DNA from: Bacteroidaceae bacterium
Lineage (GTDB): Bacteria; Bacteroidota; Bacteroidia; Bacteroidales; Bacteroidaceae
DNA: 64,000 nt
Reading direction: 5' to 3'
Assembly (NCBI GenBank): GCA_045533955.1
Contig: JAZSIU010000011.1
Location: 20,555-84,554, forward strand
Under the pieces are notes generated by a model. The model saw only the letters and a program-made list of their open reading frames with translations, was not told the DNA's origin and did not search any database. Positions 2,768 to 29,755 of this stretch are shown here, piece by piece. Both the position numbers and the translations under genes were made by a program. Positions within the stretch are counted from its first letter, which is position 1; each line of letters opens with the position of its first letter.

Positions 2768-3283
2768 TCACTCTTTGTACCACGATGCGTACATTACATA
2801 GTCGTTTGCTATGCGCTCGACAATATCTTTTTGTTGCTCGGCGCTCACCTCTTTTATCTTTTTTGCAGGCACTCCGGCATATATGCAGCCACCCTCGACG
2901 CGCATCCCCGAGGTTACAAGGGCGTTGGCCGCGACAATTGCTCCGCTCTCGACCACGGCATTATCCAATATTGTAGCACCCATCCCAATGAGGCAATTAT
3001 CCTCTATTGTGGCTCCGTGAATTGTGGCGTTGTGCCCAATAGAGACGTTATTGCCAATCTTTGTAACCGAGCGTTTGTAGAGCGTGTGTATAACCGCCCC
3101 ATCCTGTATGTTCACCTTATTGCCGATGGTGATTGTGTTTACGTCGCCGCGCAGCACTGTACCGTACCATATTGAGCAGTCGTCGCCAATTGTTACGTCG
3201 CCTATTATCGCTGCCGTCTCGGCGGCGAAGCAATTTTTTCCTATACGAGGGGTGAATCCTCTTACGTTTTTTATTATAGCCAT
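2768..3283 (-). CDS. gamma-carbonic-anhydrase-like hexapeptide-repeat (left-handed beta-helix) protein
   Basis: 171 aa with hexapeptide repeats (IGDDCSIWYGTVLRGD, IGNNVSIGHNATIHG), as in the YrdA/PaaY family. Confidence 0.8.
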   Translation of the reverse strand: MAIIKNVRGFTPRIGKNCFAAETAAIIGDVTIGDDCSIWYGTVLRGDVNTITIGNKVNIQDGAVIHTLYKRSVTKIGNNVSIGHNATIHGATIEDNCLIGMGATILDNAVVESGAIVAANALVTSGMRVEGGCIYAGVPAKKIKEVSAEQQKDIVERIANDYVMYASWYKE

Positions 3284-3347: not shown

Positions 3348-3599
3348 TCACGGCATAAATTCGCCCCCCACGCCATTGAGCGTCTGACGCAGAATCTGAT
3401 TCAGATTTTCGTCGTCGTGCTCTTTTTCCTTATTTAATTTTACAAGAAAATCGGCTGTCGTCTTTAGTGCCTGATTTATTGTGCCCGGGTCCTCGCAGTC
3501 GTGTGTCAGGCGCTCGAGCCGTTGAATGAGACGATGGAACAGGGCCAGCGTTTCGTTGTGTACGTCGTTGATGGTTACTTTACTGTTTTTCTTTGCCAT
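3348..3599 (-). CDS. hypothetical small protein
   Basis: 83-aa ATG ORF preceded by a TAnnTTTG box. No recognisable motif. Confidence 0.45.
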   Translation of the reverse strand: MAKKNSKVTINDVHNETLALFHRLIQRLERLTHDCEDPGTINQALKTTADFLVKLNKEKEHDDENLNQILRQTLNGVGGEFMP

Positions 3600-3622
3600 A
3601 GCGTGTGATGATTTTTAGGTTG

Positions 3623-3630
3623 CAAATATA
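3623..3630 (-). promoter_or_regulatory. Bacteroidetes -7 promoter box TATATTTG
   Basis: Matches the TAnnTTTG consensus on the minus strand, about 24 nt upstream of the ATG at 3599. Confidence 0.4.
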
Positions 3631-3759
3631 ATGCACTGTTTAAGAAATAGGTTGTGAAACTATTATAATCTTAATAGACAATAAATTAGTGATAATATCG
3701 CAACCGAATCGGACGCTTCTCGTATTTCTTTTGCACAAAACTTTTTAAATGTAAAAATT

Positions 3760-4290
3760 ATGGTAATACCGGGAATTATTAGCGGTGTAAGCGGTGCAAT
3801 GGGGCTTATATCGGGAGTGAAAGGAATTTTTGATGCGCGGTCGGCTGCTCGCAAGCAAAGAAAGTTGCTCAACGAGGGCAAGGCGTCGGAGGCTGCGTGG
3901 TACAAACGTAACTATTATGGCGACTATATGAATACCTCTATGGCGCGCGCGGCTCTTAAAAGAGTCGAGGATACGTTGCGCTCGCGCAGTAGGCAGAATA
4001 GGGGATATTCGGCGGTGAATGGGGCAACACCCGAGCTTGAGCTTGCCCGTAACCGTCAGAGTGCCGAGGTGCTCGAGAATGTGGCAACGGGGCTTGCACA
4101 GCAGGATAGTGCAACAAAAAGTCGAATCGACGCTATCCACCAGCAGAATTTGAATGCTTTGCGCAGTAGTCAGCTCAATGAGCTGAAAATGGACGAGCAG
4201 GCGGGGGCGCAGGCTGCTTCGCAGGGCTTTGGTCTATTGAACAATGCACTGATGGGGGTTAATTGGGGTAGCGAGAAAAAAACAATATAA
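3760..4290 (+). CDS. phage-like small protein with an N-terminal glycine-zipper hydrophobic segment
   Basis: 176 aa. N-terminus is MVIPGIISGVSGAMGLISGV and the rest is Ala/Gln/Arg-rich and helical. It is the first gene of a tightly packed four-gene operon that ends in a portal-like gene. Confidence 0.55.
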   Translation: MVIPGIISGVSGAMGLISGVKGIFDARSAARKQRKLLNEGKASEAAWYKRNYYGDYMNTSMARAALKRVEDTLRSRSRQNRGYSAVNGATPELELARNRQSAEVLENVATGLAQQDSATKSRIDAIHQQNLNALRSSQLNELKMDEQAGAQAASQGFGLLNNALMGVNWGSEKKTI

Positions 4291-4301
4291 TTTATTTACT
4301 T

Positions 4302-4715
4302 ATGGAAAAGAAAATTAAACAATTGGCCTCGGTTGTCGATAATGAAAATCAGAGGCTTAAGGAGGCTCGTTACCGGCACGCGGCGGCAATGGCTGCCGAT
4401 GCGGTAACTAATTTGGCCTCGATGTATGCACGTAGCCGAGGCGGTCGTTACGCGCTGGGAACAAATTTTGCTTCGCAGAGTGGCCGTGAACTATCGTCTG
4501 CGCGCGAGAATGTGTCGGCTGCCCGACGTAATTATAACGCACTTATGACAGAGCTTGCCTTTAGAGAACTTATCAACAAAAGGGGCTCGTCGGTGCCGCA
4601 AGCCTCGAGGCCGACATTGCAGGCGGGAGAAACTTTTGCACGAAAAGGAGCCGAGGGCATTCTCTCGGCCGAAAAAAATATGTCTCGTTGGGGTAAAATG
4701 TTGAAACGCAATTAA
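4302..4715 (+). CDS. phage-like small basic protein, unknown function
   Basis: 137 aa, Ala/Arg-rich. It lies 11 nt after the previous ORF and 25 nt before the giant ORF. Confidence 0.5.
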   Translation: MEKKIKQLASVVDNENQRLKEARYRHAAAMAADAVTNLASMYARSRGGRYALGTNFASQSGRELSSARENVSAARRNYNALMTELAFRELINKRGSSVPQASRPTLQAGETFARKGAEGILSAEKNMSRWGKMLKRN

Positions 4716-4740
4716 GAATTAACAATAAAAAACTATTACT

Positions 4741-7700
4741 ATGAACCTATTCAAAGAAAATGACGATTATCTGTTGAAAAAAGATGACCGACGCGGAAAA
4801 GATAATTCTTTTCGAGGCGATGGGGGTGCGGCTGTCAGTGCCGAGGATAAAGAGTATATGAACAGCCTTGCCGACGAGATGAAATTAGCAGGCGAGCAGA
4901 TGGAGCGCAGCCGCCAACGTCTCGAGGCTTGGGAGGCGAGAGATTGGGACAATTACTATAAGAGTAGTCAGAAGAATTTTCTTGTTCCAAAGGATAGCGA
5001 AGAGCGTCGTCGCCGACAGTTTGTAACCACTCCTAAAGTGGTCGATGAGGCTATCGAGGAGTATTACAACGATACTTTCCGCCCCAAAATGCAGGCCGAG
5101 CGTAAGGCGGCCGATGCAAAAGCATTTGAGGCCTATAAAAGCTATGCGACAGTCCCGGGCGCAAATGCTTCGCTTGCAATTGGTAATTTGTATAGTGAGA
5201 GCAACCCTCTGACCACGCTCGAAAAAGCAATGGCCGCACCCGACGATGGAGGGCTCGATGCAATTGCCAATCGCTATGCGCAGTATGCGGGGCTCGACCC
5301 CGACGAGTATCGTAAGCTGATACTCGAGCCGGCTCTCAGACAGAGGGCCGTAAAAGAGCTTGTCGATGAAAAAACGCCTAAAAGCACAGCTGAGTATATG
5401 TTGCGCGGTGTGCGTCGAAATTCGCTTATGGGCTCTATGGCCGACCTTGATTCCTATGGTTACAAGGGGGCCGGAGGGCATCGTTACATTGATGATATGG
5501 CAATGGAGAATTATAACCCCTCGCGCTTGGAGCGTTTCGTCTCAGGGGTGGGAGGACTTTTGCTCGATGGTGCTATGTTTGCGGGAATAGGCGCGGGTGC
5601 CTCATCGCTTGTGGGAAAAGCAACAAATACAATTGTTAATCGTGCCGCCTCGAAGATGATGCTCGAGGGTGCGACCAAAGGCCTCACACGCGAGGCGGCC
5701 GAGGCGGCTGCAAAAAAGGCTGTGCTCGGGAGCCTTAAGACGAAAATCGCGCAGAGTGCGGCGACGCAGGGACTTACTCTGGGTACCTACGATGCTGCGC
5801 ACAGCGTGGTCAGTGATATTCTGCACGGCGAGAATATTGATGCTACTGCGGCAGCATCGGCCTTTGGACGCGGAGCGGCGACGGGTGCTGCCGTGGGTGT
5901 TGTGGGCACGCCGCTGAGACACGTTTCGAGAGGATTGACAGGCGGACGCAGAGTGGCCGCATCGACGGGTATTCTGAGTGCCGAGTCGGCGGTGTTTACA
6001 GCCTCGGGCGAGCTTGGAAAAATGGCCGACGGGGTGCAGATTGAGCCCATCGACCTTGTTAACGATTTTGGCGAGAGTGCGGCTACGCTGCTTGCTATGA
6101 GGATGTTACATTGGCGCCCGTCGGGAGCCTCCGAGAAACTGAATACCGTAGGACGATTAAAGCCCGAACTGCGATTCTCGATGCCCGAGGCCGAAGAAAT
6201 TAAACGCGCGGGGGTTAATCCCGACCAATTTATCGCCAATCTCGAAAAGAGCCTTAACGTCTATTCGGCGGGTAGTGCAAAGGCTGCGCGCGATGTAAAA
6301 ATGGATTATCTGCGACTTATGTCCTTGCCCGATTTATCAATCTCGGCACGCTCGAAACTGCTTTACGTTGTCGAGAATAAACTCTCCTCGACACCGCCCG
6401 AGGCCGTCGATTATAAGGTGATTGATAAGGGCAACGGTAACTACGTCTTTTCGACCATTGATGCCGAGGGCCGTCTGCTCGAGAATATAAAGTGTCGTAG
6501 TCGCGAGGAGCTGAAGAGCCTCTACTTTACGCGTACGGGACAGATGCGTCGCAACAGAATTGCTATGCACGAGAGAATGTTGATGCAGAGTTACGACTCG
6601 CAGAATTTCTTTCGTCAGGCTGGTAAATATGCTCGTGAGACGGGCACCGACGTCAACCTAATCTCGGATATTATGTACCGCAAAGCGCGTCAAGAGGAGC
6701 TTGCGCCCAAGGAACAGGCTGTGCTCGACGATATTCTTGCACGCTCGAACTACTCGGATAGTGAGGTGGGGCAGATGCTCCACTCGCTCCGCCGCAGCCT
6801 CGAGCAAGAATACGGCCTTAACGACGGCAGCTTGCTTGGGGCAATAGACAAGAGTGCCTTCCACTGCTCAAAAGCCGAGAACGACGCACTTAACAGCTAC
6901 GAGAAAATTATGCGCAGCGAGGTTCTGAAACTATACGAAGGAGTGTCGAACAAGCGTGCCAATGAGCTCTCGTCCTACGATAATGACTATGCAGGTCTGG
7001 GAAACAGCGAGCTTAAAAAGCAGGAGCAACAAAATTTTACCACCCGTGCAATAATCACGGGCGAGGGGCTGAACGAAGGGGCGGTACCCACATTCACCGA
7101 GCAATATGGAATATTCGCAACCGACGTTCGTAAACCCAAAAATTGGGACGAGAGATATGTGTGGAACCCGCGACGCAACAAACACACGCGCGAGGATGTT
7201 GATAGAATGGCAAAGGAAGCTGTTGAATTAGGAAAGTCGCTCGGGGTTAAAATAAATGTCATTGTCGATGCGTCGCAAATTCCAATTACCGACCCCGAAT
7301 GGAATTTTAAGATGCGCTCATTTGGCTGGCTCAATGAAATGAATGGCGAGATAACAATAAATGTTCCAAACAACGAAGATATTGCCGCCGTGCGCCGAAC
7401 CGTAGTACACGAGGCTGTGGGGCACAGAGGCTTCGGACAACTTTTCGGCTACTACTATTTCGACTTTCTCGAGGAGGTCTATCAACGTTCCGACGCCGAC
7501 GTCCGCAAAAGCATCGACGAGATTGCCACTAATAATGCTTTTCATTTGCATAAAGCTGTTGACGAGTATATTGCGCGTCTTTCGGAGCGCACTATAACCA
7601 CTCCCGAGCAGCGTTCAATCTACCAGCGTTTCCGCGATTTTGTACGCGAGATGTTGCAGCGTCTGAATATTTTCCGTGAGCCCATTTCCGAGGACGAGCT

Positions 7701-9234
7701 TGTCGCGCTTATTCAACGCCATCATAGTGCAACGCTCCGACACAAAAAGTACAATTCGTACAGAAGCAGTGCCTTTCGCCCATTCGAGACAGCGGGACGC
7801 CGCGACGGCGGATACTACAATTACGACGTTGCAAAAGCACGTTACACAAGAGAAATGAACGAGAATCCTACGCTCAAGGGCTTACCAAAGGGCTTCCACA
7901 AAATACGCCGCGAACTATACGACGATGCTCCCGTAGAACCAACTTCGTATAGTTACAGAAACTATGGCGAGGAGGGTATCGGGCGATTGGACGAAATTCC
8001 CTATTTTCGGTTCAAAGACCTCGAAAAAATGAAAAGATTAAAGGACCTCGATAGATATTATAGCAAGCGCGGAATATACGAAGGCTGGCGCCAAACACCC
8101 GAAGGCGAGTGGTACGCGATAACAAGTAACACCCCCACAGAGGCAAAAGTATTCGATTATGTCTATCGTACACTGCGTGTCTATAATCCACGACAGGCGG
8201 AATACTATAAAGATATAATCTCGAAGCCCAAACACGAGCGTAGCGAAATAGAAAAAAACGCCCTCGAGACTATGCGTGGTGCAGCCGTACAGTTTGATGC
8301 CAGCGCACGTCTGAACGATATTTACTACGATTGGAAACTCTTTACTGCTTATCCTCAAATAGCCGAAATGCCTGTTATATTTGCACGCCTAAAGGATAGA
8401 AATGTGCTTTATGACGTCGAACACAAACGCTTCATTGTGGATAAGCGTGGGTTCGAGGACCCTAAATTCAGAAACGAGCTTTACTATACTATGCAGCACG
8501 TTATTGATGACATTGAAGGGTTGGGCAACAGACCTGTGCTACGCGATGATGTCGAGCGTAATACAATTATATCTTATAACGACGCCGAGCGCTATATTGA
8601 TTCAAGCAGGGGGCTCTCGGTGGTGAAGCGTGAGCCGCGTATCCGTGAGTTGTATAGGATGAGATTAGGTACAGACTTGGACAGATTAAAAGAAGAATAT
8701 CCCGATATAGATTCTTATCTTGATGATATTATAGATTTTAGGTGGCCCGATCGAAGAGGGCGGGCATTGAAGAGTTATTCTACCAATAACGACGAGTTGC
8801 GAGGCTTTCTGGGTGGCCCGATCGACCTTATTGAGAAGGTGCTCGAGAATACTTCGCGCGATAGCAAAGAAATGACATTGCGCGAGGCTGAAAATTTAAG
8901 AAGTTTCTCATTTGGTATTCCACAGTATAGTTTGCCTAAATATGTCCCGTTGCCGGTCTTGAAGAGGAAGCATTTTGAACCTGTAACTAAAGAAACTTAC
9001 GAACAGCAAGAGCCTAAAATACGTCCTATCGAGGATATATTACGTGAGTATGAATTTTTGTATGGCCCGGGCGAAAATTCCATAAAACCCAAATTTATTA
9101 AAATAAATACGACTAAAGGAAGGTATATACCACCCTTTAGACAGAATTACTTAGATGCAGATGGAAACACTCCTTACCGTCCGTTAGAGGAGATTCTTAA
9201 GGAATTTAACGAAAAGTATGGAAAGTCGTATTAA
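4741..9234 (+). CDS. giant phage-like protein (polyvalent / internal-virion-protein-like) with Gly/Ala-rich hydrophobic segments and an HEAVGH motif
   Basis: Uninterrupted 1497-aa ORF with an N-terminal coiled-coil-like region. Gly/Ala-rich hydrophobic runs at about aa 270-440 (GVGGLLLDGAMFAGIGAGASSLVG, GAATGAAVGVVG). HEAVGH at aa 890-895 (nt 7408-7425). Confidence 0.6.
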   Translation: MNLFKENDDYLLKKDDRRGKDNSFRGDGGAAVSAEDKEYMNSLADEMKLAGEQMERSRQRLEAWEARDWDNYYKSSQKNFLVPKDSEERRRRQFVTTPKVVDEAIEEYYNDTFRPKMQAERKAADAKAFEAYKSYATVPGANASLAIGNLYSESNPLTTLEKAMAAPDDGGLDAIANRYAQYAGLDPDEYRKLILEPALRQRAVKELVDEKTPKSTAEYMLRGVRRNSLMGSMADLDSYGYKGAGGHRYIDDMAMENYNPSRLERFVSGVGGLLLDGAMFAGIGAGASSLVGKATNTIVNRAASKMMLEGATKGLTREAAEAAAKKAVLGSLKTKIAQSAATQGLTLGTYDAAHSVVSDILHGENIDATAAASAFGRGAATGAAVGVVGTPLRHVSRGLTGGRRVAASTGILSAESAVFTASGELGKMADGVQIEPIDLVNDFGESAATLLAMRMLHWRPSGASEKLNTVGRLKPELRFSMPEAEEIKRAGVNPDQFIANLEKSLNVYSAGSAKAARDVKMDYLRLMSLPDLSISARSKLLYVVENKLSSTPPEAVDYKVIDKGNGNYVFSTIDAEGRLLENIKCRSREELKSLYFTRTGQMRRNRIAMHERMLMQSYDSQNFFRQAGKYARETGTDVNLISDIMYRKARQEELAPKEQAVLDDILARSNYSDSEVGQMLHSLRRSLEQEYGLNDGSLLGAIDKSAFHCSKAENDALNSYEKIMRSEVLKLYEGVSNKRANELSSYDNDYAGLGNSELKKQEQQNFTTRAIITGEGLNEGAVPTFTEQYGIFATDVRKPKNWDERYVWNPRRNKHTREDVDRMAKEAVELGKSLGVKINVIVDASQIPITDPEWNFKMRSFGWLNEMNGEITINVPNNEDIAAVRRTVVHEAVGHRGFGQLFGYYYFDFLEEVYQRSDADVRKSIDEIATNNAFHLHKAVDEYIARLSERTITTPEQRSIYQRFRDFVREMLQRLNIFREPISEDELVALIQRHHSATLRHKKYNSYRSSAFRPFETAGRRDGGYYNYDVAKARYTREMNENPTLKGLPKGFHKIRRELYDDAPVEPTSYSYRNYGEEGIGRLDEIPYFRFKDLEKMKRLKDLDRYYSKRGIYEGWRQTPEGEWYAITSNTPTEAKVFDYVYRTLRVYNPRQAEYYKDIISKPKHERSEIEKNALETMRGAAVQFDASARLNDIYYDWKLFTAYPQIAEMPVIFARLKDRNVLYDVEHKRFIVDKRGFEDPKFRNELYYTMQHVIDDIEGLGNRPVLRDDVERNTIISYNDAERYIDSSRGLSVVKREPRIRELYRMRLGTDLDRLKEEYPDIDSYLDDIIDFRWPDRRGRALKSYSTNNDELRGFLGGPIDLIEKVLENTSRDSKEMTLREAENLRSFSFGIPQYSLPKYVPLPVLKRKHFEPVTKETYEQQEPKIRPIEDILREYEFLYGPGENSIKPKFIKINTTKGRYIPPFRQNYLDADGNTPYRPLEEILKEFNEKYGKSY

Positions 9235-9269
9235 ATATTTGTAGGACGAATAATTTATTTAAAAAGACT

Positions 9270-11240
9270 ATGAATAAATTTCTTAACCGACGAGTGAAGG
9301 CCGCAGCAAGCTCGCCAAAGAAATCCGATGAGCAAAGCTCGGGAGCTGCTCTCGATTTTCTTGACGAGTGCGCAAACTGCTGGAACTCACTCGACGAGGC
9401 CCGCCGCAAATTGCGGCGGAGCCTTATGTACAGCTACGGCGACCAATGGGGCGATTATGTGCGCGACCCCGAGTCGTCGGGCTATATTACCGAGGGCGAG
9501 CTTATAAAGAGAAACGGAAAGGTTCCGCTGAAGAATAATATGATTGCACCCATACTGAGCAATATCGACGGTCAGCTGCGACAGAATCTGATGCGGCCCG
9601 TGTGTGTGGCACGCGACAATCGCGAGAGTACGCTGGGCGAAATGATGTCCATCGCAGTGGAGTATGTTCACGATATAAATGAGATGGAGGAACTCGACTC
9701 CGACGCTATGCGTATGCTTCTCAACGGCGGGATGATTGCGCAGCGCATCGAGTATGGATTGAACGTCTCGAAGGATAAGCGCGACGTATGGGTCTATGGC
9801 GTCAATCCTTCGCGTCTCTTCTTTAACACCAATCTCGAGGATGTACGTATGTGGGATATTACCTGTGTGGGCGAACTTTTTGATATGTCGCTCGATGATG
9901 TTCTTGCGCATTTTGGGCATACGCCCGAGGCTAAGCAACGTATTCTTGAAATTTATGGCGACGTCGGACGCAGCAGCCTCGACACGCGCGCAATGCAGGG
10001 CAACGAGACGCGTGAGCTTACCTTTTACACCCCTTCGCGCAGCGACCTGTGCCGTGTGATTTTAGGTTGGAAACTCGAGTCGCGCGACGCTTATCGTTGG
10101 AACGATACTCTGCACGGAACGTGGGGCTATCTGCCTTATAACGACGATAGTCGTCTGCTGCTCGATGAGGCTAACAGCCGCCGGCGCGAACTTGCGAAAG
10201 GAAAGGGTTCGGGCGATGAGGATTTTCTTGGCATCGAGTATGAGTTTGCCATCGAGCGCTATTGGTACTATCGCTATATGTCGCCACGGGGTGATATTTT
10301 GCAAGAGGGACGCAGCCCTTATTGGCACGGCGAGCATAATTATGTGCTGCATCTTTATCCTATGATGCAGGGGCGACTGGGTAATTTTGTCGAGCAGTTT
10401 ATCGACCAGCAGAGGGCTATTAACCGCACGGCGACGCTCATCGACTTTATACGCGGAACATCGTCGAAGGGTGTGCTTGTGGTTGATGATGAGGCCTTCG
10501 AGAGTATGTCGCGCGAGGAGGTTATCGACGAATATGTGCGCTACAATGGGGTGCTCTTTGTCAAACTGAAGCCCGGGCAGAGTATCGACGGGGTGGTGCG
10601 GCAATATAACAGTGGCGCTGCCGTTGCCGGCGATTTTGAGTTGCTCAATCTGCAACTGAGGCTGATAAATGAAATTTCGGGCGTCAACTCGGCTATGCAG
10701 GGACAGGCGCCAAAGGCAGGCACTCCGGCGAGCCTCTATGCACAACAGGTGCAGAATTCGTCGCTTAACCTTAAGGGGTTGTTCGATGGCTTCCGCTCGT
10801 TCCGCCGTCGGCGCGATACAAAATTGGTGAAGATGATTCAGCAGTATTATACCGATGAACGTTATCTTGACATTGCGGGCGGCGATTATGCCGAGGAGTC
10901 GCGCTGGTACTCGCCCGAGAAGGTGCGCAACAGTGAGTTTGACCTTACGCTCACCGAGGGTTATAACACGCCGGCCTATCAGATGCTGGCCAACGATTTT
11001 CTTATGCAACTGTTTCAGGCTAATGTGCTTGACGTTAAGACGATGCTCGAGAATAGCAGCTATCCTTTTGCCAAAAAGATTCTCGAGGCTATCAAGCGCA
11101 ACGAGGAGCAGGCTGCCGCCGGTGCTGCCACCGAAGGGGTGTCGCCCGAGTTGCTTGCTATTCTTGCCAATGCCTCGCAGCAGGATGCTGTCGAGGGTGT
11201 TAAGTCCCGGGAAAAAGAAAAATTGTCTTTACAACAATAA
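9270..11240 (+). CDS. phage portal-like protein
   Basis: 656 aa. The N-terminal segment (RRSLMYSYGDQWGDYV ... GKVPLKNNMIAPILSNIDGQL) resembles the Y-x-G-x-Q-W region recurrent in podovirus/Mu-type portal families. The size is typical of portals. Confidence 0.6.
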   Translation: MNKFLNRRVKAAASSPKKSDEQSSGAALDFLDECANCWNSLDEARRKLRRSLMYSYGDQWGDYVRDPESSGYITEGELIKRNGKVPLKNNMIAPILSNIDGQLRQNLMRPVCVARDNRESTLGEMMSIAVEYVHDINEMEELDSDAMRMLLNGGMIAQRIEYGLNVSKDKRDVWVYGVNPSRLFFNTNLEDVRMWDITCVGELFDMSLDDVLAHFGHTPEAKQRILEIYGDVGRSSLDTRAMQGNETRELTFYTPSRSDLCRVILGWKLESRDAYRWNDTLHGTWGYLPYNDDSRLLLDEANSRRRELAKGKGSGDEDFLGIEYEFAIERYWYYRYMSPRGDILQEGRSPYWHGEHNYVLHLYPMMQGRLGNFVEQFIDQQRAINRTATLIDFIRGTSSKGVLVVDDEAFESMSREEVIDEYVRYNGVLFVKLKPGQSIDGVVRQYNSGAAVAGDFELLNLQLRLINEISGVNSAMQGQAPKAGTPASLYAQQVQNSSLNLKGLFDGFRSFRRRRDTKLVKMIQQYYTDERYLDIAGGDYAEESRWYSPEKVRNSEFDLTLTEGYNTPAYQMLANDFLMQLFQANVLDVKTMLENSSYPFAKKILEAIKRNEEQAAAGAATEGVSPELLAILANASQQDAVEGVKSREKEKLSLQQ

Positions 11241-11333: not shown

Positions 11334-11756
11334 ATGAAAAGACTTTTTACTTTGTCGGTAGTGGCAATTATGATGCTCTCTGCAATGGTGATAACATCGT
11401 GCAGCACTGCAAAATCAGTTAACAGCAGCTTTGTGAAAAATGGTTACACAATGGAGGCTCTGACGGTGCAGCAGCAAGAGGCAACGGCTCCTGTTATGAA
11501 GGCTTTCCCCTCGTTCAACCAGACTGCATTGGGCTTTTTACAGACAGGCAATGCTACAACCTTTGTTTATCAGGTAGATGAGAGTATCTGGAACAGTTAT
11601 TGCGCTTCGCTCGAGGCTGCCGGTTTCTCTAATCTTGGTACGGGCTACGTTAAGGCCGACAAGAGCGTTGGTGTTACCTATAATATCTCGGGAAAGTTTA
11701 CAACTATCTATAAACAGACTTTCTTGCTGGTAACATATACGTGGAGTAATTTCTGA
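11334..11756 (+). CDS. lipoprotein, unknown function
   Basis: The internal ATG at 11334 gives MKRLFTLSVVAIMMLSAMVITSC, a signal peptide with a lipobox Cys. Confidence 0.6.
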   Translation: MKRLFTLSVVAIMMLSAMVITSCSTAKSVNSSFVKNGYTMEALTVQQQEATAPVMKAFPSFNQTALGFLQTGNATTFVYQVDESIWNSYCASLEAAGFSNLGTGYVKADKSVGVTYNISGKFTTIYKQTFLLVTYTWSNF

Positions 11757-11785: not shown

Positions 11786-11828
11786 GCTCGGCATAAAATA
11801 GCTTTATTTTATGCCGAGCCTTTTTTTG
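11786..11828 (+). terminator. Rho-independent terminator
   Basis: GCTCGGCATAAAATA/TATTTTATGCCGAGC stem followed by a T-run. Confidence 0.75.
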
Positions 11829-11951
11829 CTATCTTCGAGCAATGCTCGAGGATTTTTTGCTCTGGTTACAAAACAAATGCTCGCGTGTGATTATATTTTC
11901 GCAGCATTCGTTTCAAAAAATAAAAACAAGGGATTTATAATTTTAATAATT

Positions 11952-13190
11952 ATGGACAACACAATTAAAAACTCTGAGGAGAAAAAAGGTGCAACGGCCA
12001 CTCGCAAAAGCATAACACAAAACAAAAACTTCCCGAAAAATAAGATTGCTATTTGTATTATTATACTTCTACTGTGCTCTTTACCCTTATTATGGTCGTT
12101 TATGGGTAATAGTGATTCAATTGCGACAGCGCACGCCAAGCTACCACAAAAAAAGGCAAAATATCAAGAAGTTTATAGCTACAAAGAGGGACTGGCCCGT
12201 GTAAGTTTATGGAATAAAACAGGCTTCATAGACAAGAGCGGCAATGAGGTTATTCCGCCAAAGTATGATATAGTCGGGGATTTTGCAGAAGGAATGTGTA
12301 TTGCTATATTGGGTGGCAAAAAGTTTCTTGTCGACAAGAACGGTAGCGAAATAGCCTTAGAACAGAAATACAGTATTATTTGTAATTTCTCCGAAGGCCT
12401 TGCACGTGCAATAAAAGGAGGTATAATAAATGGAAAATATCTTTTTATTGACAAGAGCGGCAATGAGGTTATTCCGCCAATATACAGTATTGCTGAAGAT
12501 TTTTCCGAGGGCCTTGTAGCCGTTGCAATAAATCGTAAAAGAGGCTTTATTGACAAGAGCGGCAATGAGGTTATTCCACTAAAATACGATTATGTAAAAT
12601 CATTTTCCGAAGGCCTTGCAGCCGTTGAGATAAATGATAAATGGGGCTTTATTGACAAGGGCGACAATGTGGTTATATCGCCGGAATACGACTATGCCCA
12701 TAGTTTTTCCGAGGGATGTGCCGCGGTCGCGATAAACGATAAAGAGGGCTTTATTGACAAAAGCGGCAAAGTGGTTGTTCCACTAAAATACGATTATGTC
12801 CACAAATTTACCGAGGGCCTTGCGGTCGTTGGGATAGACCATCAGTGGGGCTTTGCCAATAAACAAGGCAAAGAGATAACCCCATTAAAATACGATTATG
12901 CCGGCGATTTTTCCGAAGGCCTTGCAGTAGTTGAGATGAATGGTAAAAGAGGATTTATTGACAAACAAGGCAAAGAGGTTATTCCACTAAAATACGACTA
13001 TGCCAACGACTTTTCCGAGGGCCTTGCAGCCGTTGATATAAATGGTAAAACGGGTTTTATTGATAAGAGCGGCAAAGTGGTTATAGAGCTAAAATATGAT
13101 GTGGCAGATAGTTTCTCCGAGGGTGCAGCCCGTGTGAGATTGGGTAAAGAAGAATTCCACATTGATAAGAAAGGAAACAGAATATGGTAA
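11952..13190 (+). CDS. membrane-anchored WG-repeat (KWG) protein
   Basis: ATG at 11952. One TM segment (IAICIIILLLCSLPLLW), then about 11 repeats of the form GFIDKSGNEVIPxKYDxxxxFSEGLA. Confidence 0.8.
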   Translation: MDNTIKNSEEKKGATATRKSITQNKNFPKNKIAICIIILLLCSLPLLWSFMGNSDSIATAHAKLPQKKAKYQEVYSYKEGLARVSLWNKTGFIDKSGNEVIPPKYDIVGDFAEGMCIAILGGKKFLVDKNGSEIALEQKYSIICNFSEGLARAIKGGIINGKYLFIDKSGNEVIPPIYSIAEDFSEGLVAVAINRKRGFIDKSGNEVIPLKYDYVKSFSEGLAAVEINDKWGFIDKGDNVVISPEYDYAHSFSEGCAAVAINDKEGFIDKSGKVVVPLKYDYVHKFTEGLAVVGIDHQWGFANKQGKEITPLKYDYAGDFSEGLAVVEMNGKRGFIDKQGKEVIPLKYDYANDFSEGLAAVDINGKTGFIDKSGKVVIELKYDVADSFSEGAARVRLGKEEFHIDKKGNRIW

Positions 13191-13536: not shown

Positions 13537-15546
<2,010 letters not shown>

Positions 15547-23927: not shown

Positions 23928-24295
23928 TTACTTTTTAAAAGCCCTCTTTAGCAGCAGGCGTGCGGCGCAGATGCGGTTCTTGATGGTTGCCCAGTGGCAG
24001 GCCGAGCGCGAGCGTAATCTCGCAATATTTGTAGCTCCGGGCATACATTATCAGTGGGGTGGAAAAATCGGGTGGGAGCTTTGCGATAATGCGAGAAACA
24101 TCGTGAAATTCCGGCAGTACGTCGGCTGCGTCATCTGTGCTGTAATAATTATAATTGGTATTTTCTATTCTTACTCTTCACTCCGCAAAGAGAGACGTTC
24201 GTTAAGAAAGATATTTCGCATAATCCGCCGGGCCCAATGGTCGAATCTCGTTCCGATAGTAAAATATTTTCGCTTGATATAGGCCTTTGTTAGCC
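23928..24295 (-). pseudogene. decayed, N-terminally truncated sigma-70/ECF-type sigma factor gene
   Basis: The minus strand reads region-2-like FDHWARRIMRNIFLNER, then in-frame TAA (24171-24173) and TAG (24165-24167). Region-4-like LPPDFSTPLIMYARSYKYCEITLALGLPLG follows in another frame. A further frameshift precedes TIKNRICAARLLLKRAFKK-stop at 23928. Similarity stops at the island edge, about 24295. Confidence 0.6.
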
Positions 24296-24334
24296 ATAAT
24301 GTTAAAAACCCCTCTAGAATGGTCGGGAGGGTGT
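24296..24334. repeat. partial third copy of the 83-bp arm repeat (contains hairpin T1)
   Basis: ATAATGTTAAAAACCCCTCTAGAATGGTCGGGAGGGTGT aligns with the right half of 29382-29464 and 34408-34490. Confidence 0.7.
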
Positions 24335-24389
24335 GAAAATAAAGCAACCGCCTCAACATAATGAAACGTCGGAGCGGTTGTAAGTTGTT

Positions 24390-24726
24390 GACTATTTTCT
24401 GTTTGCCCTGCGGGCAACTCCCATTGAGTCAATCACTGTCGCATCGCGACCGTATCCCACGCTTTGCGTGACTATTACTCAGTGATTGCCTCTATCATTT
24501 TGCAAGCAAAATAATTGACTCATCACAATGTTGCCTTTAACTTTGTTGAAACGCTGCTGCACTCGTTGTAAAAACTCAAACAAGTTTAGTTTTAACTTGT
24601 TGGCAGGTGTTTTGGGCAATCGCACGTCGCGTGGCACTAGAACTCTCCCTCTGTTTATAGAGGGAGTACCCGAAGGGGGAGGGAGTATTTGTGCTACACG
24701 CGACTAACTGCTCAAAAGGTTGCTCA
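24390..24726 (-). other. structured non-coding module, copy I
   Basis: Shares TCCCATTGA (24419-24427), CAATCGC and the bulged helix GCGTGGCAC (24629-24637)/GTGCTACACGC (24691-24701) with copies II and III. Minus-strand terminator hairpins lie at its low-coordinate end. Confidence 0.4.
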
Positions 24727-24759
24727 GTAGTCGTAAAAAACAGCGTTTTTTACGACTAC
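24727..24759. repeat. att-core-like sequence in perfect-hairpin form
   Basis: GTAGTCGTAAAAAAC-AGC-GTTTTTTACGACTAC. The same left arm and loop region occur at 29749-29775. Confidence 0.6.
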
Positions 24760-24872
24760 TCGACTAGAATAGTTAAATTGGGGTTAAATATTTTAACTTT
24801 ATTATCAATGCTTTAACACTGAATTTTACCTTTTGAAACGGCAACTGGTGTCAAGAACAGGTGTCGAAAAAT
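24760..24872. repeat. AT-rich arm repeat, copy 1, with paired GGTGTC motifs
   Basis: TCGACTAGAATAGTTAAAT...TTTTAACTTTATTATCAATGCTTTAA aligns with 27849-27945 and 29784-29890. GGTGTC at 24847 and 24860. Confidence 0.75.
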
Positions 24873-24873
24873 T

Positions 24874-25944
24874 TTATATTATTGGTTCTATAGTGTATCC
24901 TTGTTCTTCTCCAAATTTAATTATTTTCCCTATATTGCCACTGCCAATTTCTCTTGTAAAAGCAAAAGTAATCCCATCAGCACTTACCATTAAGTTCTCT
25001 TTTTCTTCACGCCAACGCTTGTCTTTGGATTTATCAGTAGTAGTTTCTTTCCACTTTTGTATTTCAGAATACTTTTCAATACCAAATGGAATAGCATTTA
25101 CAATTTCATAATAAGTAAGTTGAGGGTTATTCCTTACAAACAATTGTACTATAGCTAACGCTAAATGCCCTTTGCCATAGTTCCCATTTCCATTTAGTCT
25201 ATATTGTGTGTAGTCCTTTGGCTTATTGTTACTTATTACAGGGGTTTGGGCTGGAGTGTATGTTTCTATATGTATTATGTTTGTGCAATTTTTACGTTTA
25301 ATGTTTATTTCTATTTCATTTGTGATATTCTCAATATCTTCAGCACAGTATCCCTCGCTTGTCAATTTTTGATTTAATAACTCAATAAATAATTGCTTAC
25401 CTTTTTCTGTTGTAAGTTCGTTGATAAACTCGTTAATCTCTTTTTGTTTTTCTTGTTTTGCGATTTGTTCAATGCAAAAATTAGTAAGCTGTTCGGCGTT
25501 GAAATTTTCTTGTTTGAAAAGTTCAATAAAGTTTTTACCATTATTAGAGTTTTCTACGAAGTCAATTTTCAATATACTTATAGGTTCTTTTCCAAACTCA
25601 TAATAGAACAATTCTATATGTTCTCCCATATATATACCAAATTGCACTGGTAGTAATTTCATATATGAGAAAAGTTGTACTATTTCCTCTTTATTTTGAA
25701 TGTGGTTAGGTTTTTTCATCTCAATAACGAACAATGGAGTATCGTCCTTGAAAAATACAATATCTGGATATACATAGTTTACTGTACTGCCGACTCTTAA
25801 TTGATATTGATTTTCTACACGCTCGCAGTGCCAACCTAATAAATAACGAAAGTGTGTATAGACAAGTTTTTGATATTCCTTTTCGGTTGCTTGCTTTGTT
25901 TTCTTATCTAATATGTCTTTACATATTGTGTTCCAAATATTCAT
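24874..25944 (-). CDS. PD-(D/E)xK nuclease-like protein (type I restriction HsdR N-terminal-like domain) with an uncharacterised C-terminal domain
   Basis: 356 aa. YPDIVFFKDDTPLFVIEMKK fits the D...E-x-K nuclease core. It occupies the cargo slot of decayed unit 1. Confidence 0.55.
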   Translation of the reverse strand: MNIWNTICKDILDKKTKQATEKEYQKLVYTHFRYLLGWHCERVENQYQLRVGSTVNYVYPDIVFFKDDTPLFVIEMKKPNHIQNKEEIVQLFSYMKLLPVQFGIYMGEHIELFYYEFGKEPISILKIDFVENSNNGKNFIELFKQENFNAEQLTNFCIEQIAKQEKQKEINEFINELTTEKGKQLFIELLNQKLTSEGYCAEDIENITNEIEINIKRKNCTNIIHIETYTPAQTPVISNNKPKDYTQYRLNGNGNYGKGHLALAIVQLFVRNNPQLTYYEIVNAIPFGIEKYSEIQKWKETTTDKSKDKRWREEKENLMVSADGITFAFTREIGSGNIGKIIKFGEEQGYTIEPII

Positions 25945-26067
25945 TGTGCTATGTTTTAATGCACAAAGTTATTTATTTATTTATATTCATTTAATCAAGT
26001 GATATTCATAAATACAGTTATTGCTCCCGACTTCGCCGGGAGCAATAACTAATAAACAAAATTCAAA

Positions 26068-26172
26068 TTAAATACAGAACTCTCTCTTTACTCTCTGCAC
26101 TGTACTAACGCTAACATTGGATAATTTTGCTGTGTTTCGTACAGAGTAACCACGCTTGAGCAGTGAGATTAA
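26068..26172 (-). pseudogene. 3' stub of a serine recombinase gene
   Basis: Encodes LISLLKRGYSVRNTAKLSNVSVSTVQRVKREFCI-stop. This is near identical to the C-terminus of the intact gene at 30761-31414. No upstream catalytic domain is present. Confidence 0.8.
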
Positions 26173-26217
26173 TAGTAAAAATGTTTAATTAAGTATGTCA
26201 ACAAAAAGTTTTTTTGC

Positions 26218-26225
26218 TATATTTG
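26218..26225 (+). promoter_or_regulatory. -7 promoter box TATATTTG upstream of the HipA-like operon
   Basis: TAnnTTTG match about 120 nt upstream of the ATG at 26345. Confidence 0.4.
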
Positions 26226-26344
26226 CGGTAAAATTGGGAATATAGTTTGCACTTGCATTGAAAAAATATTGAATGTTTTTTGATATTTCTCAGTTGTTAG
26301 TGTTATATATATGCTTCAATTATTATAATTCTACGTGTCAAAAT

Positions 26345-27136
26345 ATGCTCGATAGTATCAAGGATATTCAAAAACAATATGAAACAGGAGAAAACCCTGT
26401 TCTTGTAATGTGTAACGATAAGAATGAGTATGTGTGTAAGTATATGCGTTCTTTAAATCCTGCGTATAAGCTTGTGTGTGAATTCATTGGCTCTCATCTT
26501 GTTGAAAAATGGAATATCCGTTCTCCGAAAATGAATCTAGTGAAAATCAAGGCTGAGCATTGGAGTAATTTTTTATCGACAAATTGTATCCGTACTGCAC
26601 CAGCGTTGGGGTATATGATGCTGAATAGTGTTGTTGATATTACACAGACAACGTATAGTCATATACAACTGTCAAAGAAAGTTCTTGTACAATTGCTAAA
26701 GATTGCTCTTTTTGACTTTTGGGTAGCAAATGAAGACCGTACATATAATAATGCAAATTTGCTGTACGATGTAAAATGCGATGAACTTGTTTCTATTGAT
26801 TATGGCGGAATATTCAATACCTCGACATTTGAATACCCAATGTGTCAGTTGACAATGACAGATACGATATTGTATGCAGAAATATTCAAACAATTTATAA
26901 ATAAATTTTCAAAGAATGAAATTAGGACTGTTGCTGTAGGGTTGGAAGATTATTATAGAAAGTCGGTCGATAAGTGTAGAGGTGTGCTTGAAAGTATGAT
27001 TTCGGGAATACCATTAGAATGGAAAGTTGATAATGATATTATACTTAATAAACTGATGCAATTGTTTGATGAGTCGTGGGTGGCTGAAGTGTGGACAAAT
27101 TTTGTTGAATGCTTAAATGATAATATAAATGAATAA
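26345..27136 (+). CDS. HipA-like (HipA C-terminal fold) protein kinase
   Basis: The ATG at 26345 gives MLDSIKDIQ. The catalytic-loop-like WVANEDRTYNNANLLYD and metal-binding-like VSIDYGG resemble the HipA kinase core. Confidence 0.6.
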   Translation: MLDSIKDIQKQYETGENPVLVMCNDKNEYVCKYMRSLNPAYKLVCEFIGSHLVEKWNIRSPKMNLVKIKAEHWSNFLSTNCIRTAPALGYMMLNSVVDITQTTYSHIQLSKKVLVQLLKIALFDFWVANEDRTYNNANLLYDVKCDELVSIDYGGIFNTSTFEYPMCQLTMTDTILYAEIFKQFINKFSKNEIRTVAVGLEDYYRKSVDKCRGVLESMISGIPLEWKVDNDIILNKLMQLFDESWVAEVWTNFVECLNDNINE

Positions 27137-27476
27137 GTTACAATATAGCATAATTTTTGGTGAGATTAGACCTGAGATTTCTGAACGTTTAAGTCTTGGC
27201 GTCATTGTAGTAGATGGTGAAAATATTTCTGTCAAATACTCAAACAAGAAATTGCAGGTGTTAAAAAGTCTGTACTCTCAAAAAGAATATGAGTTTGTAG
27301 GGAGAGTTGTCAGAGGGTTGTCAAGAAACAATAAGATTCCTTCAGAAGGCATAGTTAATTATTTGTCAAGATACTCAAATAATTTGCTCTCAATATCAAA
27401 ATTACAGGGGATAGATTTGGAAGCAAATGAAAAGAGTAAACAATGGTTGTATGATACATATGTAAAGGTGGGTTAA
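27129..27476 (+). CDS. DUF3037-like small protein, translationally coupled to the kinase
   Basis: 115 aa with an 8-nt overlap with the kinase stop. The N-terminus (YSIIFGEIRPEISERLSLGVIVVDG) resembles DUF3037 as I recall it. There is no HTH. Confidence 0.45.
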   Translation: MNKLQYSIIFGEIRPEISERLSLGVIVVDGENISVKYSNKKLQVLKSLYSQKEYEFVGRVVRGLSRNNKIPSEGIVNYLSRYSNNLLSISKLQGIDLEANEKSKQWLYDTYVKVG

Positions 27477-27494
27477 AAACAACCCTTTGGAAAT

Positions 27495-27531
27495 AAAACA
27501 ATAAAGAAGCCGTAGGCTTCTTTATTGTTTT
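27495..27531. terminator. bidirectional hairpin terminator
   Basis: AAAACAATAAAGAAGCC-GTA-GGCTTCTTTATTGTTTT. Confidence 0.75.
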
Positions 27532-27540
27532 ATAGTTATC

Positions 27541-27799
27541 ATACTTGCGGGGTAGCGGACTAAGGTAAATACCCGAAGGGGAGGTGGCTTTATGCTACGT
27601 GCGACTATTACTCATTGAAGCCCTTGGTGGAAGTAATAAACAACAAGAGCCGAAAGGCTCTTGTTGTAGAATATTGTCATTGTCCCCTTTGAGGCCATCC
27701 CATTGAGACCATTGTTTTTGTCTTTGACAATCGCCACCCACGCGGTGCCACCTTACGGCACTTCGCGTGACCTATGGCTCTGCGATTAGCTCGGAAGGA
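27541..27799 (-). other. structured non-coding module, copy III
   Basis: TCCCATTGA at 27698-27706. Hairpin TTGTC/GACAA at 27718-27730. Bulged helix CGCGGTGCC (27741-27749)/GGCACTTCGCG (27757-27767). Confidence 0.4.
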
Positions 27800-27829
27800 G
27801 TAATAAAAAAATGGAACCTTGTGGTTCCA

Positions 27830-27848
27830 TTTTTTATTACTCCCACTC
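27830..27848. repeat. degenerate att-core copy
   Basis: TTTTTTATTACTCCCACTC is preceded by its own hairpin (27800-27840) and followed by the AT-rich arm. Confidence 0.6.
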
Positions 27849-27945
27849 GACTAGATATATTAAATTTTGAATAAATCTTTTAACTTTATTATCAATACTT
27901 TAATATTGCCATTTGCTCTAAGATGAGTTAAATGGTGTCGAAAGA
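27849..27945. repeat. AT-rich arm repeat, copy 2
   Basis: GACTAGATATATTAAATTTTGAATAAATCTTTTAACTTTATTATCAATACTTTAA. A single GGTGTC at 27934. Confidence 0.75.
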
Positions 27946-29232
27946 TTATTCTTGCTTTTCTATCTCTATGTTTTTGAATTTACCAAAAACGGGGTGATGT
28001 CGGTATTCCCAACGTGTTCCAGATGGTACATACAGAGTACATTCTTCAAAATTAACACTTTCATCTTTACCTAAGGCATAATTATCAATTTGAATATTGC
28101 CTAATTGTGTCCAATGTAGATGTATGCTTTTCAGTGCCGAGCAACCCTGAAAAGCTCTGTATCCAATTGCTGTTACGCTATTTGGAATGTTAATGTTTTG
28201 TAATGATGAACACCACCAAAAAGCTGATTCTCCTATTGTTGTTACACTGTTCGGAATTTCAATGCTTTTCAGTGCCGAGCAGAACTTAAAAGCGGAATCT
28301 CCTATTGTTGTTACACTGTTTGGGATGTCAATGCTTTGCAGTGCTGAGCAATTATAAAACGCTTCACTTCCTATTGTTGTAACACTATTAGGAATATCAA
28401 TGCTTTGCAGTGCTTCACAACCGCCAAAAGCACTGTATCCTATTGTTATTACGCTATTAGGTATATCAATGCTTTGCAGTGCCATACACTCCCAAAAAGC
28501 ACTATTTCCTATTGTTGTTACACTGTTTGGAATGTTAATGCTTTGTAGTGATGAACAACCATAAAAAGCACTATCTTCTATTGTTGTTACGCTGTTTGGG
28601 ATGTCAATGCTTTGTAGTGATGAGCAACCATAAAAAGCGTGGTTTCCTATTGTTGTTACACTGTTTGGGATGTCGATGCTTTGTAGTGATGAGCAACCCC
28701 AAAAAGCACCATTTCCTATTGTTGTTACGCTATTTGGGATGTCAATGCTTTGCAGTGCTGAGCAACCACCAAAAGCACTATTTCCTATTGTTGTTACACT
28801 GTTTGGAATCTGAATACTTTGCAGTGCCGAGCAACCCCCAAAAGCGTATTCTCCAATTGTTGTTACGCTGTTTGGGATGTCAATGCTTTGCAGTGCCGAG
28901 CAACTCCAAAAAGCACTGTATCCTATTGTTGTTACGCTGTTTGGAATCTGAATACTTTGCAGTGCCGAGCAACTCCAAAAAGCACTGTATCCTATTGTTG
29001 TTACACTATTAGGAATCTCAATGCTTTGCAATTGCCAGCAACTATTAAAAGCATTTTTTCCTATTGTTGTTACGCTGTTAGGTATATCAATACTTTTCAA
29101 TTGCCAGCAACTATTAAAAGCATCGTGTCTAATAGTTGTTACCCCCTTAGGTATTGTAATATGAGTAATGGGTTGATTGTTAACGCTTATTACAGCTTTT
29201 TTGTCTTCACTTAATATAAGAATATTATCCAT
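27946..29232 (-). CDS. BspA-type leucine-rich-repeat protein without a signal peptide
   Basis: About 14 tandem 23-aa repeats ([24 protein letters not shown]). The ATG at 29232 lies 25 nt downstream of a -7 box. The N-terminus [12 protein letters not shown] is not a signal peptide. Confidence 0.8.
28146..29166. repeat. 69-bp periodic coding repeats inside the LRR gene
   Basis: Many units share long identical nucleotide runs (e.g. CCTATTGTTGTTACACTGTTTGG...AATGCTTTGCAGTGC). Confidence 0.85.
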
Positions 29233-29256
29233 TGCTATACTATAAATTGCTTTTTG

Positions 29257-29264
29257 CAAATATA
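29257..29264 (-). promoter_or_regulatory. -7 promoter box TATATTTG for the LRR gene
   Basis: TAnnTTTG on the minus strand, 25 nt upstream of the ATG at 29232. Confidence 0.45.
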
Positions 29265-29321
29265 GTTTTTTAATTTTAAGAATAGATTATAGTTGTAAAT
29301 AACATATATAAAAAATCTAAA

Positions 29322-29464: not shown

Positions 29465-29519
29465 GAAAATAAAGCAACCGCCTCAACATAATGAAATGTT
29501 GAAGCGGTTGTAAGTTGTT

Positions 29520-29748: not shown

Positions 29749-29755
29749 GTAGTCG

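Follow-up and report, generated by a model that had tools for sequence, protein, structure and literature searches.

A P22-type portal and polyvalent-protein operon in uncultured Bacteroidaceae, probably one half of a domesticated, multi-locus particle system resembling gene transfer agents

The 64-kb stretch of Bacteroidaceae bacterium DNA analyzed here (positions 20,555 to 84,554 of contig JAZSIU010000011.1, assembly GCA_045533955.1; hereafter the window) carries, among housekeeping genes, an operon of phage-type genes encoding two small proteins (p176 and p137), a very large protein (giant), and a portal-like protein. A preliminary description of this DNA had reported four same-strand genes lying between a hexapeptide-repeat gene and ligA. 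The four open reading frames (ORFs), all of which are intact, are located precisely at the positions given there, and their spacers measure 11, 25, and 35 nt. However, ligA is not the immediate neighbor, and the four-gene unit has to be extended by a fifth conserved gene, u80. The set of u80, p176, p137, giant, and portal is referred to as the module, with the following positions in the window.

3348-3599, minus strand: u80, 83 aa, divergent from p176, the fifth conserved module gene
3760-4290, plus strand: p176, 176 aa, ATG start
4302-4715, plus strand: p137, 137 aa, ATG start
4741-9234, plus strand: giant, 1497 aa, ATG start
9270-11240, plus strand: portal, 656 aa, ATG start

The 656-aa protein, already suspected of being a portal in the preliminary description, matches the Pfam family PF16510 (P22_portal) with an E-value of 3.1e-39 and 135.4 bits (cut-off 26.1), portal residues 35-619 being aligned to profile positions 5-564 of 594. 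PHROG 156 ("portal protein") is matched at 8e-60, and a profile built from 15 portal sequences retrieves the solved structures 8jov ("Portal protein", E 5.4e-13) and 9vyf (1.2e-4) from the PDB. These profile matches identify the protein as a P22-type portal.

For the giant, 155 homologues were found, many of which carry an annotation of the polyvalent-protein domain LPD23 (PF18838). Its features are as follows.

aa 265-292, nt 5533-5616: hydrophobic segment
aa 330-470, nt 5728-6150: most conserved Gly/Ala-rich region in the conservation profile
aa ~811-975, nt 7171-7665: zincin (MPTase-like) domain
aa 890-895, nt 7408-7425: HEAVGH
aa ~1100-1145, nt ~8038-8175: region equivalent to LPD23
aa ~1140-1260: second confidently predicted alpha/beta domain

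The best-conserved part is a Gly/Ala-rich hydrophobic region (aa 265-470). The HExxH residues H890, E891, and H895 are invariant in all 36 homologous sequences compared, aa 811-1032 match PHROG 14770 at 5.6e-19, and in an AlphaFold2 model of aa 800-1375 a helix, three strands, and the HExxH helix form a zincin core. Foldseek matches to the PDB are weak (best E 0.18), with the zincins anthrax lethal factor, selecase, and IrrE at the top, while ten matches with E <= 1e-3 were obtained in BFVD, most of them phage polyvalent proteins with LPD annotation. LPD23 exceeds the threshold in the homologue of one relative (L033, 43.5 bits; loci of relatives bear L numbers) and falls just below it in another (L003, 25 bits); it was not reported for the window giant in the Pfam run, though the corresponding region aligns with that of the homologues. 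In the same run, the window giant gave no peptidase family, only sub-threshold noise, and a PDB sequence search with the giant profile returned nothing meaningful. Transglycosylase, methylase, helicase, and RNA polymerase domains were not found in the giant. By its homologues and domains, the giant is predicted to belong to the polyvalent, virion-internal class of phage proteins (PMC5512222), as its uninterrupted length had suggested in the preliminary description.

The relationship of the operon to phages is most evident from three cultured Bacteroides temperate phages of ~65 kb, BS-TP4, BKO1-TP3, and BF1-TP2 (PQ571277, PQ571269, and PQ571263, respectively). Identity to these phages amounts to 36% for the portal and ~32% for the zincin-bearing part of the giant, which in tblastn matches the giants adjoining the portal in all three. 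In BS-TP4, gp1 (79 aa), gp2, gp3 (5391 aa), and the portal gene gp4 follow each other, and beyond gp4 an opposite-strand terminase gene, a scaffold-like gene, and an SU10-type capsid gene are found; the integrase gene lies just before gp1 across the record ends (integrase, gp62, gp1-gp4). The zincin region is common to the giant and BS-TP4 gp3, and the giant gene ends 35 nt 5' of the portal gene, a placement that recurs in BS-TP4-like phages. IMG/VR contains many relatives of 30-65 kb with portals 41-62% identical and the same gene order, in which giant and portal are followed by TerL (large terminase) and t135 on the opposite strand and then by scaffold and MCP (major capsid protein) in the original direction. 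Since the window operon is collinear and homologous with BS-TP4 and the IMG/VR relatives, it corresponds to the gp1-gp4 block of a BS-TP4-like phage lineage.

This correspondence extends to the small proteins. A hidden Markov model (HMM) of 74 p176 homologues retrieves BS-TP4 gp1 with E-values of 1e-9 to 8e-11 and a Mediterranea prophage protein with 2.5e-37. The N-terminus of p176 (aa 1-24) is glycine-rich and hydrophobic, in agreement with the glycine zipper noticed before. p137 is small, basic, and the fastest-evolving member of the module; a small ORF occupies its position in nearly all loci and is poorly conserved, 57 loci forming one sequence cluster. Neither a Pfam nor a PHROG family was found for p137, and in Pfam both p176 and p137 gave sub-threshold noise only. 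Both are presumably internal or ejection proteins. u80 is located directly 5' of the p176 homologue in ~60 of the 77 species loci introduced below, with 61-90% identity. An HMM search yielded no phage homologue and Pfam no family for u80, which we regard as a candidate regulator. A ribbon-helix-helix fold, suspected by eye, is not claimed here: the single-sequence AlphaFold2 model (three helices, pLDDT 65) speaks neither for nor against it.

To describe the distribution, one genome per GTDB species was scanned, and 80 loci were returned. In 77 of them the portal is 71-94% identical across species, and the hosts are uncultured Bacteroidaceae and Bacteroidales from ruminant and other animal guts. 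The other three loci, with a portal identity of 55-59%, belong to true prophages of Paludibacteraceae, Alistipes, and Mediterranea. The order of a reverse-oriented u80 followed by forward-oriented p176, small ORF, giant, and portal is conserved in the loci of the 77 species, and giant and portal are both intact in 67 of them, the remainder being contig ends or members of a sub-lineage with a giant of ~1100 aa. In that sub-lineage (L025, L030, L035, and L079) giants measure only ~1100 aa, in other species they reach up to 1887 aa, and in phage relatives 3200-5400 aa; this cargo protein has been trimmed repeatedly. The module is flanked by core genes, on the left by the hexapeptide gene or the F-type ATP synthase operon and on the right usually by ligA-dapA-DUF2400-malic enzyme.

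The module and its flanking core genes show equal synonymous divergence (dS): between the window and L070, dS is 0.43 for portal, 0.40 for ligA, and 0.42 for the malic enzyme gene. The ratios of nonsynonymous to synonymous divergence (dN/dS) are as follows.

portal: 0.02-0.08
ligA: 0.03-0.07
giant: 0.07-0.17
p176: 0.04-0.15
u80: 0-0.08
p137: 0.10-0.29

Across 41 species (820 pairs), pairwise identity correlates with that of ligA for the portal (r = 0.80) nearly as for the malic enzyme (r = 0.81), in a clade in which ligA proteins differ by up to 30%. Relative to ligA, the portal diverges 1.15x and the giant 3.25x as fast. The base composition of the module (GC 0.48-0.53, GC at third codon positions 0.49-0.61) equals core-gene values, whereas the genes of an AT-rich island in the window show 0.37-0.40 and 0.27-0.42, respectively, so that the earlier impression of a core-like codon style is borne out. 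The module is thus inherited vertically under strong purifying selection and is not a decaying remnant; purifying selection had been argued in the preliminary description from the intact ORFs, with synteny and dN/dS in related genomes proposed as a check.

We consider it highly improbable that the operon is part of an ordinary prophage, either as a decaying remnant or as the end of a complete prophage cut by the assembly or the window. The phage origin of the operon is beyond doubt, and in BS-TP4 the corresponding block is situated near the integrase end. The module boundaries, however, are the same in 77 species, dS equals that of the core flanks with dN/dS of 0.02-0.17, the composition is host-like, and the contigs carrying the module show housekeeping genes to its left and right. 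Among themselves, the module portals share at least 71% identity, but none exceeds 62% identity with a phage portal in IMG/VR. As had been stated before, att-like flanking direct repeats are absent and no integrase is adjacent; the only integrase of the window lies 21 kb from the module, and tRNA genes are likewise absent from the window. The absence of terminase and capsid genes noted earlier was confirmed as well: tblastn of the whole 64 kb detected no relative of the terminase, capsid, or partner genes of the family, and terminase and capsid were likewise not found in a Pfam survey of the larger ORFs of the window.

A second conserved cluster of ~10 genes, here called the partner cluster, was reached by following phage-like genes that some relatives carry on the left side of the module. 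Its minus strand encodes TerL (PHROG 2, 2.7e-20) and three small genes. The plus strand contributes the genes for a scaffold-like protein, a capsid protein of 539 aa, a pair of small proteins, a multi-pass membrane protein, a lipoprotein with a hydrophobic segment at the C-terminus, and a structural protein of 926-960 aa; as a rule, two small genes on the minus strand and a gene for a helix-turn-helix (HTH) S24 repressor (LexA/CI-like) come next. The capsid protein is homologous to BS-TP4 gp11, itself an SU10_MCP match at 1.5e-29, and shows identities of 88-91% across more than 120 sequence clusters. For all partner genes dN/dS is 0.02-0.27; the ~930-aa structural protein and h211 diverge fast, together with the giant. 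In the capsid operons of L089 (9521-10400) and L086 (12791-13613), the 155-aa multi-pass membrane protein looks holin-like and the lipoprotein of ~130-146 aa looks spanin-like.

The distance between the two clusters is variable. They are contiguous in L003, separated only by the hexapeptide gene in L090 (portal 81% identical to that of the window), and separated by the whole ATP synthase operon on a single contig in L089/L024 and L177. In one metagenome-assembled genome (L086 and L175) they are ~21 genes apart, the capsid cluster being located between relA and guaA-gap, and in L182 the capsid cluster is situated beside gap. Housekeeping genes, including the complete F-ATPase operon, are thus interposed. 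In one metagenome, ~35 distinct versions with unchanged order were observed. A further stage of fragmentation is represented by the metagenome contig L204 (1-8000), in which the scaffold-capsid operon stands apart from the terminase operon and the ~930-aa gene is absent 3' of it. TerL, which adjoins the portal in related phages, is syntenic in relatives and missing inside the window; the head-and-packaging set (terminase, portal, capsid) is present on single contigs in relatives and incomplete within the 64 kb. The chromosomal gene order corresponds to that of the phages after circular permutation, with the opening between portal and terminase. Phage replication, integration, diversity-generating retroelement (DGR), and most lysis genes are gone from the chromosomal sets, and in the arrangements seen, no integrase or replication gene occurs in or beside either cluster.

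A shared motif of ~20 nt connects the two clusters. In the window, it occurs in two copies between u80 and p176.

3622-3629, minus strand: TAnnTTTG-like box, ~20 nt downstream of the motif copy at 3644-3668
3644-3668, minus strand: motif copy facing u80, 20.5 bits with the position weight matrix, consensus TTGTCATTnCAGCAACCTTG
3687-3711, plus strand: motif copy facing the p176 operon, 21.4 bits
~3728-3731, plus strand: conserved TTTG box between the motif copy and the p176 start at 3760

The two copies constitute a 17-bp inverted repeat with a spacer of 21-22 nt, which is present in 33 of 49 alignable loci (0.2 expected in shuffles) with 90% of the cells in its arms paired and 9 of 17 positions co-varying. 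Single copies are located ~20-25 nt before a TTTG box 5' of the scaffold-capsid operon, and opposite-strand copies precede the terminase-side operons in most loci scanned. Ahead of the scaffold-capsid operon, the motif scores 21-32 bits in L086 and L089 as well as in 15 of the 16 domesticated loci scanned in metagenomes; the sixteenth, L204, carries a degenerate copy, and the motif is absent from the phage-like locus L212. Within loci of 10-24 kb, scores of at least 20 bits are restricted to promoter-proximal positions. The window has a lineage-specific variant, TGATAATATCGCAACC, of which no further strong copy was found in the window. From its sequence and placement, the inverted repeat is best read as two divergent copies of a promoter-associated motif that appears private to this system. 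Because the same promoter-proximal motif is found at the operons of both, module and partner cluster probably form one regulon.

An RNA or DNA hairpin, suggested by the covariation, an excess of 51 G-T over 7 A-C cells, and an RNA fold z-score of -2.7, is not our preferred interpretation of the repeat, since single arm copies sit 5' of the partner operons; Rfam returned no match. The mismatches between the arms (3650-3666 and 3689-3705) are strand-asymmetric, and this is not explained by a promoter motif. The asymmetry would fit pairing in a plus-strand RNA or single-stranded DNA, although both putative promoters are located downstream of the arms.

Taken together, we favor, with a probability of roughly 0.65, the interpretation of the operon as the portal and internal-protein half of a domesticated, vertically inherited, multi-locus particle system of the gene transfer agent (GTA) type. 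The preliminary description had left two readings side by side, a domesticated portal-plus-cargo module and one part of a split particle system; the comparative data favor the second, because relatives carry a terminase-capsid cluster at variable distance and under the same motif. A GTA-like particle is suggested by the lack of replication and excision functions, the scattering among essential genes, conservation at housekeeping rates, and the combination of slowly evolving head and motor proteins with fast-evolving parts presumed to serve in contact and as cargo. Since selection on the module is unrelaxed in the sub-lineage of the window, either the partner cluster resides elsewhere in the genome or the module is self-sufficient; we presume that the cluster is retained.

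Several observations weigh against this interpretation. The partner cluster is absent from the window (tblastn). In the close relative L172, the 9 kb preceding the module likewise lack it and contain grpE, a sulfatase gene, a DEAD helicase gene, serC, serA, DUF1015, and yigZ. A partner cluster assignable to this sub-lineage was obtained neither from the L172 flank nor by a metagenome scan seeded with the nearest capsid fragment nor by means of the motif variant. The cluster sites of relatives, on the guaA side in L086 and on the gap side in L182, are occupied in the window by the integrase-bearing AT-rich island and by a permease gene. As both guaA-gap sites hold other genes, the genome may have lost the cluster, and the island beside guaA may mark the site of its loss or displacement. 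Neither a tail-fiber or receptor-binding gene nor an endolysin gene was recognized in the ~19-gene set. The protein reading the motif is left between two candidates, u80 and the S24 repressor. Moreover, the capsid descends from phages of 45-65 kb. In contrast to classical GTAs, the complete gene set of ~20 kb, where contiguous, could fit into one head. Finally, all module-bearing organisms are uncultured metagenome-assembled genomes, and the system is described from their genes.

The absence of the partner cluster from the window and from the vicinity of the module in L172 is what a stand-alone, co-opted module would explain, in which portal and its three companions act without a capsid of their own in this sub-lineage, either as decoys poisoning infecting phages of the same family (portals 55-62% identical) or as a supply to the capsid of a helper phage. 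Related true phages and prophages do occur in Bacteroidales, portal dN/dS is 0.04-0.07 both in the group of the window, L070, and L005 and in that of L006, L007, L008, and L001, with no relaxation of selection, and a giant evolving at 3.25x the rate of ligA is as expected of a protein in conflict. On the other hand, every relative that could be read further has a co-regulated terminase-capsid cluster under strong purifying selection, the window retains both copies of the shared motif, and no known defense system is composed in this way (PADLOC was not searched). We therefore regard a stand-alone function as unlikely.

A different purpose of the particle, namely killing by a PBSX-like or tailocin-like particle or delivery of the polyvalent protein with DNA being incidental, appears quite unlikely. 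The zincin domain of the giant is of a kind found in injected effectors (PMC5512222), the giant is, with the ~930-aa structural protein and h211, the fastest-diverging large component, and the HTH-S24 repressor suggests stress-induced, lytic release. However, the full DNA-packaging motor, TerL and portal, is conserved at housekeeping rates and would be dispensable for a particle devoted purely to protein delivery or killing.

Returning to the GTA-like interpretation, its history and mode of action could be envisaged as follows. An ancestor would have acquired a prophage of the BS-TP4-like lineage of Bacteroidales temperate phages, which was opened between portal and terminase and lost replication, integration, and most accessory genes. 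Host rearrangements would then have distributed the ~19 surviving genes over two or three loci: (a) u80, p176, p137, giant, and portal, i.e., the set in the window; (b) the large terminase gene with three small genes, the scaffold-like and SU10-type capsid genes, and the genes for four small proteins and a structural protein of ~930-960 aa; and (c) the HTH-S24 (LexA/CI-like) repressor gene with two small genes. By the common promoter-proximal motif, the operons would be switched together. Upon induction, a portal dodecamer would nucleate the procapsid, and p176, p137, and the giant would be loaded inside on the portal, comparable to T7 gp14-16, the P22 ejection proteins, and the P1 Dar proteins, before DNA is pumped into the head by the partner-cluster terminase. 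At the recipient, the internal proteins would leave via the portal, their glycine-rich hydrophobic segments would enter the envelope, and the zincin domain might process the giant itself or recipient proteins during DNA entry. The pay-off would most likely be a GTA-like transfer of host DNA. That p176, p137, and the giant are packaged and ejected is here deduced from gene position and domain type; induction, a cargo of DNA, and its transfer are further proposals. It is tempting to speculate that the system is, in full, a GTA-like viriform of Bacteroidota of the P22-portal/SU10-capsid type, fixed throughout a clade of herbivore-gut Bacteroidaceae, dispersed between housekeeping operons, controlled by one private motif, and injecting DNA together with a rapidly evolving polyvalent metalloprotease, a proposal that we put forward tentatively and at somewhat less than even odds.

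The genes next to the module and the further features of the window are listed below. On the 5' side, the module is preceded by a serA-like dehydrogenase gene, DUF1015, a YigZ-like gene, and the hexapeptide-repeat gene; on the 3' side, a lipoprotein gene, a WG-repeat gene, ligA, dapA, a 2-hydroxyacid dehydrogenase gene, DUF2400, and the malic enzyme gene follow.

2768-3283, minus strand: hexapeptide-repeat gene, upstream neighbor
11334-11756, plus strand: lipoprotein gene, 140 aa from an internal ATG; the ORF opens at TTG 11289 (155 aa)
11786-11819, plus strand: strong hairpin resembling an intrinsic terminator, with a stem of 15 bp and a T run after it
11811-13190: WG-repeat gene between the portal side and ligA, GC 0.40
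13537-15546: ligA, separated from portal by the lipoprotein and WG-repeat genes
32942-34270: tyrosine integrase gene, the only integrase gene in the window, in the unrelated AT-rich island

The product of the lipoprotein gene has a signal peptide with a lipobox-like ...ITSC. This gene is situated 3' of portal in 34 loci (36-93% identity), and no phage homologue was found. No terminator-like site occurs between it and portal, and the hairpin at 11786-11819 likely marks the end of the transcription unit. The lipoprotein gene is possibly co-transcribed with the operon and may be a host-derived addition to it; its membership in the module is uncertain. The WG-repeat gene encodes eight WG-containing beta repeats arising from 102-nt tandem units. 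Most relatives lack it, and a short reversed fragment is found in L172/L005; it looks like a recent acquisition between module and ligA. In L016, L017, L038, and L058, an island led by a tyrosine integrase gene is inserted between portal and the usual 3' neighbors, ligA of L017 being located ~10 kb further on. The gap between portal and ligA therefore looks like an insertion hot spot. The AT-rich island of the window (~24000-34300) contains genes for an HSDR_N protein, a HipA-like kinase, a BspA-type leucine-rich repeat protein, a resolvase (30761-31414), and the tyrosine integrase, and it abuts guaA (34560-35867).

GTAs are known from very few lineages, mostly in the Alphaproteobacteria. Rates of horizontal transfer in Bacteroidales are among the highest in gut communities. 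If the favored interpretation is true, a host-controlled packaging-and-delivery particle fixed in ~77 species would constitute a new candidate route of genetic exchange and a natural case of a polyvalent phage protein kept by its host. The compact, recognizable regulon, with one motif at four or five promoters, would lend itself to studying how bacteria take over phage genes. Our literature searches yielded neither a description of this element nor a GTA-like element in Bacteroidota, and a 2026 survey of known GTA lineages has none in this phylum (known ones are listed in PMC12946183). The system is a candidate for a phage domestication that took place independently, in a phylum new to GTAs and starting from another phage lineage, and that combines a polyvalent cargo protein with a promoter motif of its own.

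Among the closest known systems are the Bacteroides temperate phages (PMC12694917) and the IMG/VR proviruses, which are homologous and collinear with the module, gp1 corresponding to p176, and in which a zincin-bearing giant directly 5' of a P22-type portal is followed by terminase and SU10-type capsid genes. Unlike the module, these phages are complete (45-68 kb) with integrase, replication, lysis, and DGR modules, their giants comprise 3000-5400 aa as compared to 1497 aa in the window, and it is the window element, in contrast to the BS-TP4-type phages, that evolves with its host. To the module proteins, the ejection proteins of T7 and P22 show no detectable sequence homology. Nevertheless, T7 gp14/15/16, P22 gp7/20/16, P1 DarB, and the N4 vRNAP type (PMC5512222) resemble the module in the combination of one or more small proteins with a very large one beside the portal, and in hydrophobic or glycine-rich segments. 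A zincin (MPTase) domain and, in homologues of the giant, an LPD domain are shared with polyvalent phage proteins of the kind that is packaged and injected.

Among GTAs, multi-locus genomes have been described for RcGTA and VSH-1 (PMC5026251) and for the podovirus-like FpGTA of Faecalibacterium, which consists of two operons (PMC12946183). FpGTA is comparable to the present system as a GTA-like element of a gut commensal with structural genes of the short-tailed-phage type in two operons. It occurs in Firmicutes, shows no detected sequence relationship to the genes described here, and is backed by particle proteomics and packaged-DNA reads, whereas our system, in this respect also unlike the RcGTA type, is represented by its genes. 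With the RcGTA type (PMC5026251) it has in common that terminase, portal, and capsid are inherited vertically under purifying selection without integration and replication genes, that several co-regulated chromosomal loci are involved, and that conserved head genes stand beside fast-evolving parts with a presumed role in host contact. In contrast to the RcGTA type, which derives from an HK97-like siphovirus and resides in Alphaproteobacteria under the control of CtrA/GafA, the system of the Bacteroidota would have originated independently, from a lineage with P22-type portal and SU10-type capsid, includes a polyvalent protein of 1100-1900 aa, and is apparently regulated by a dedicated motif together with, in relatives, an S24 repressor.

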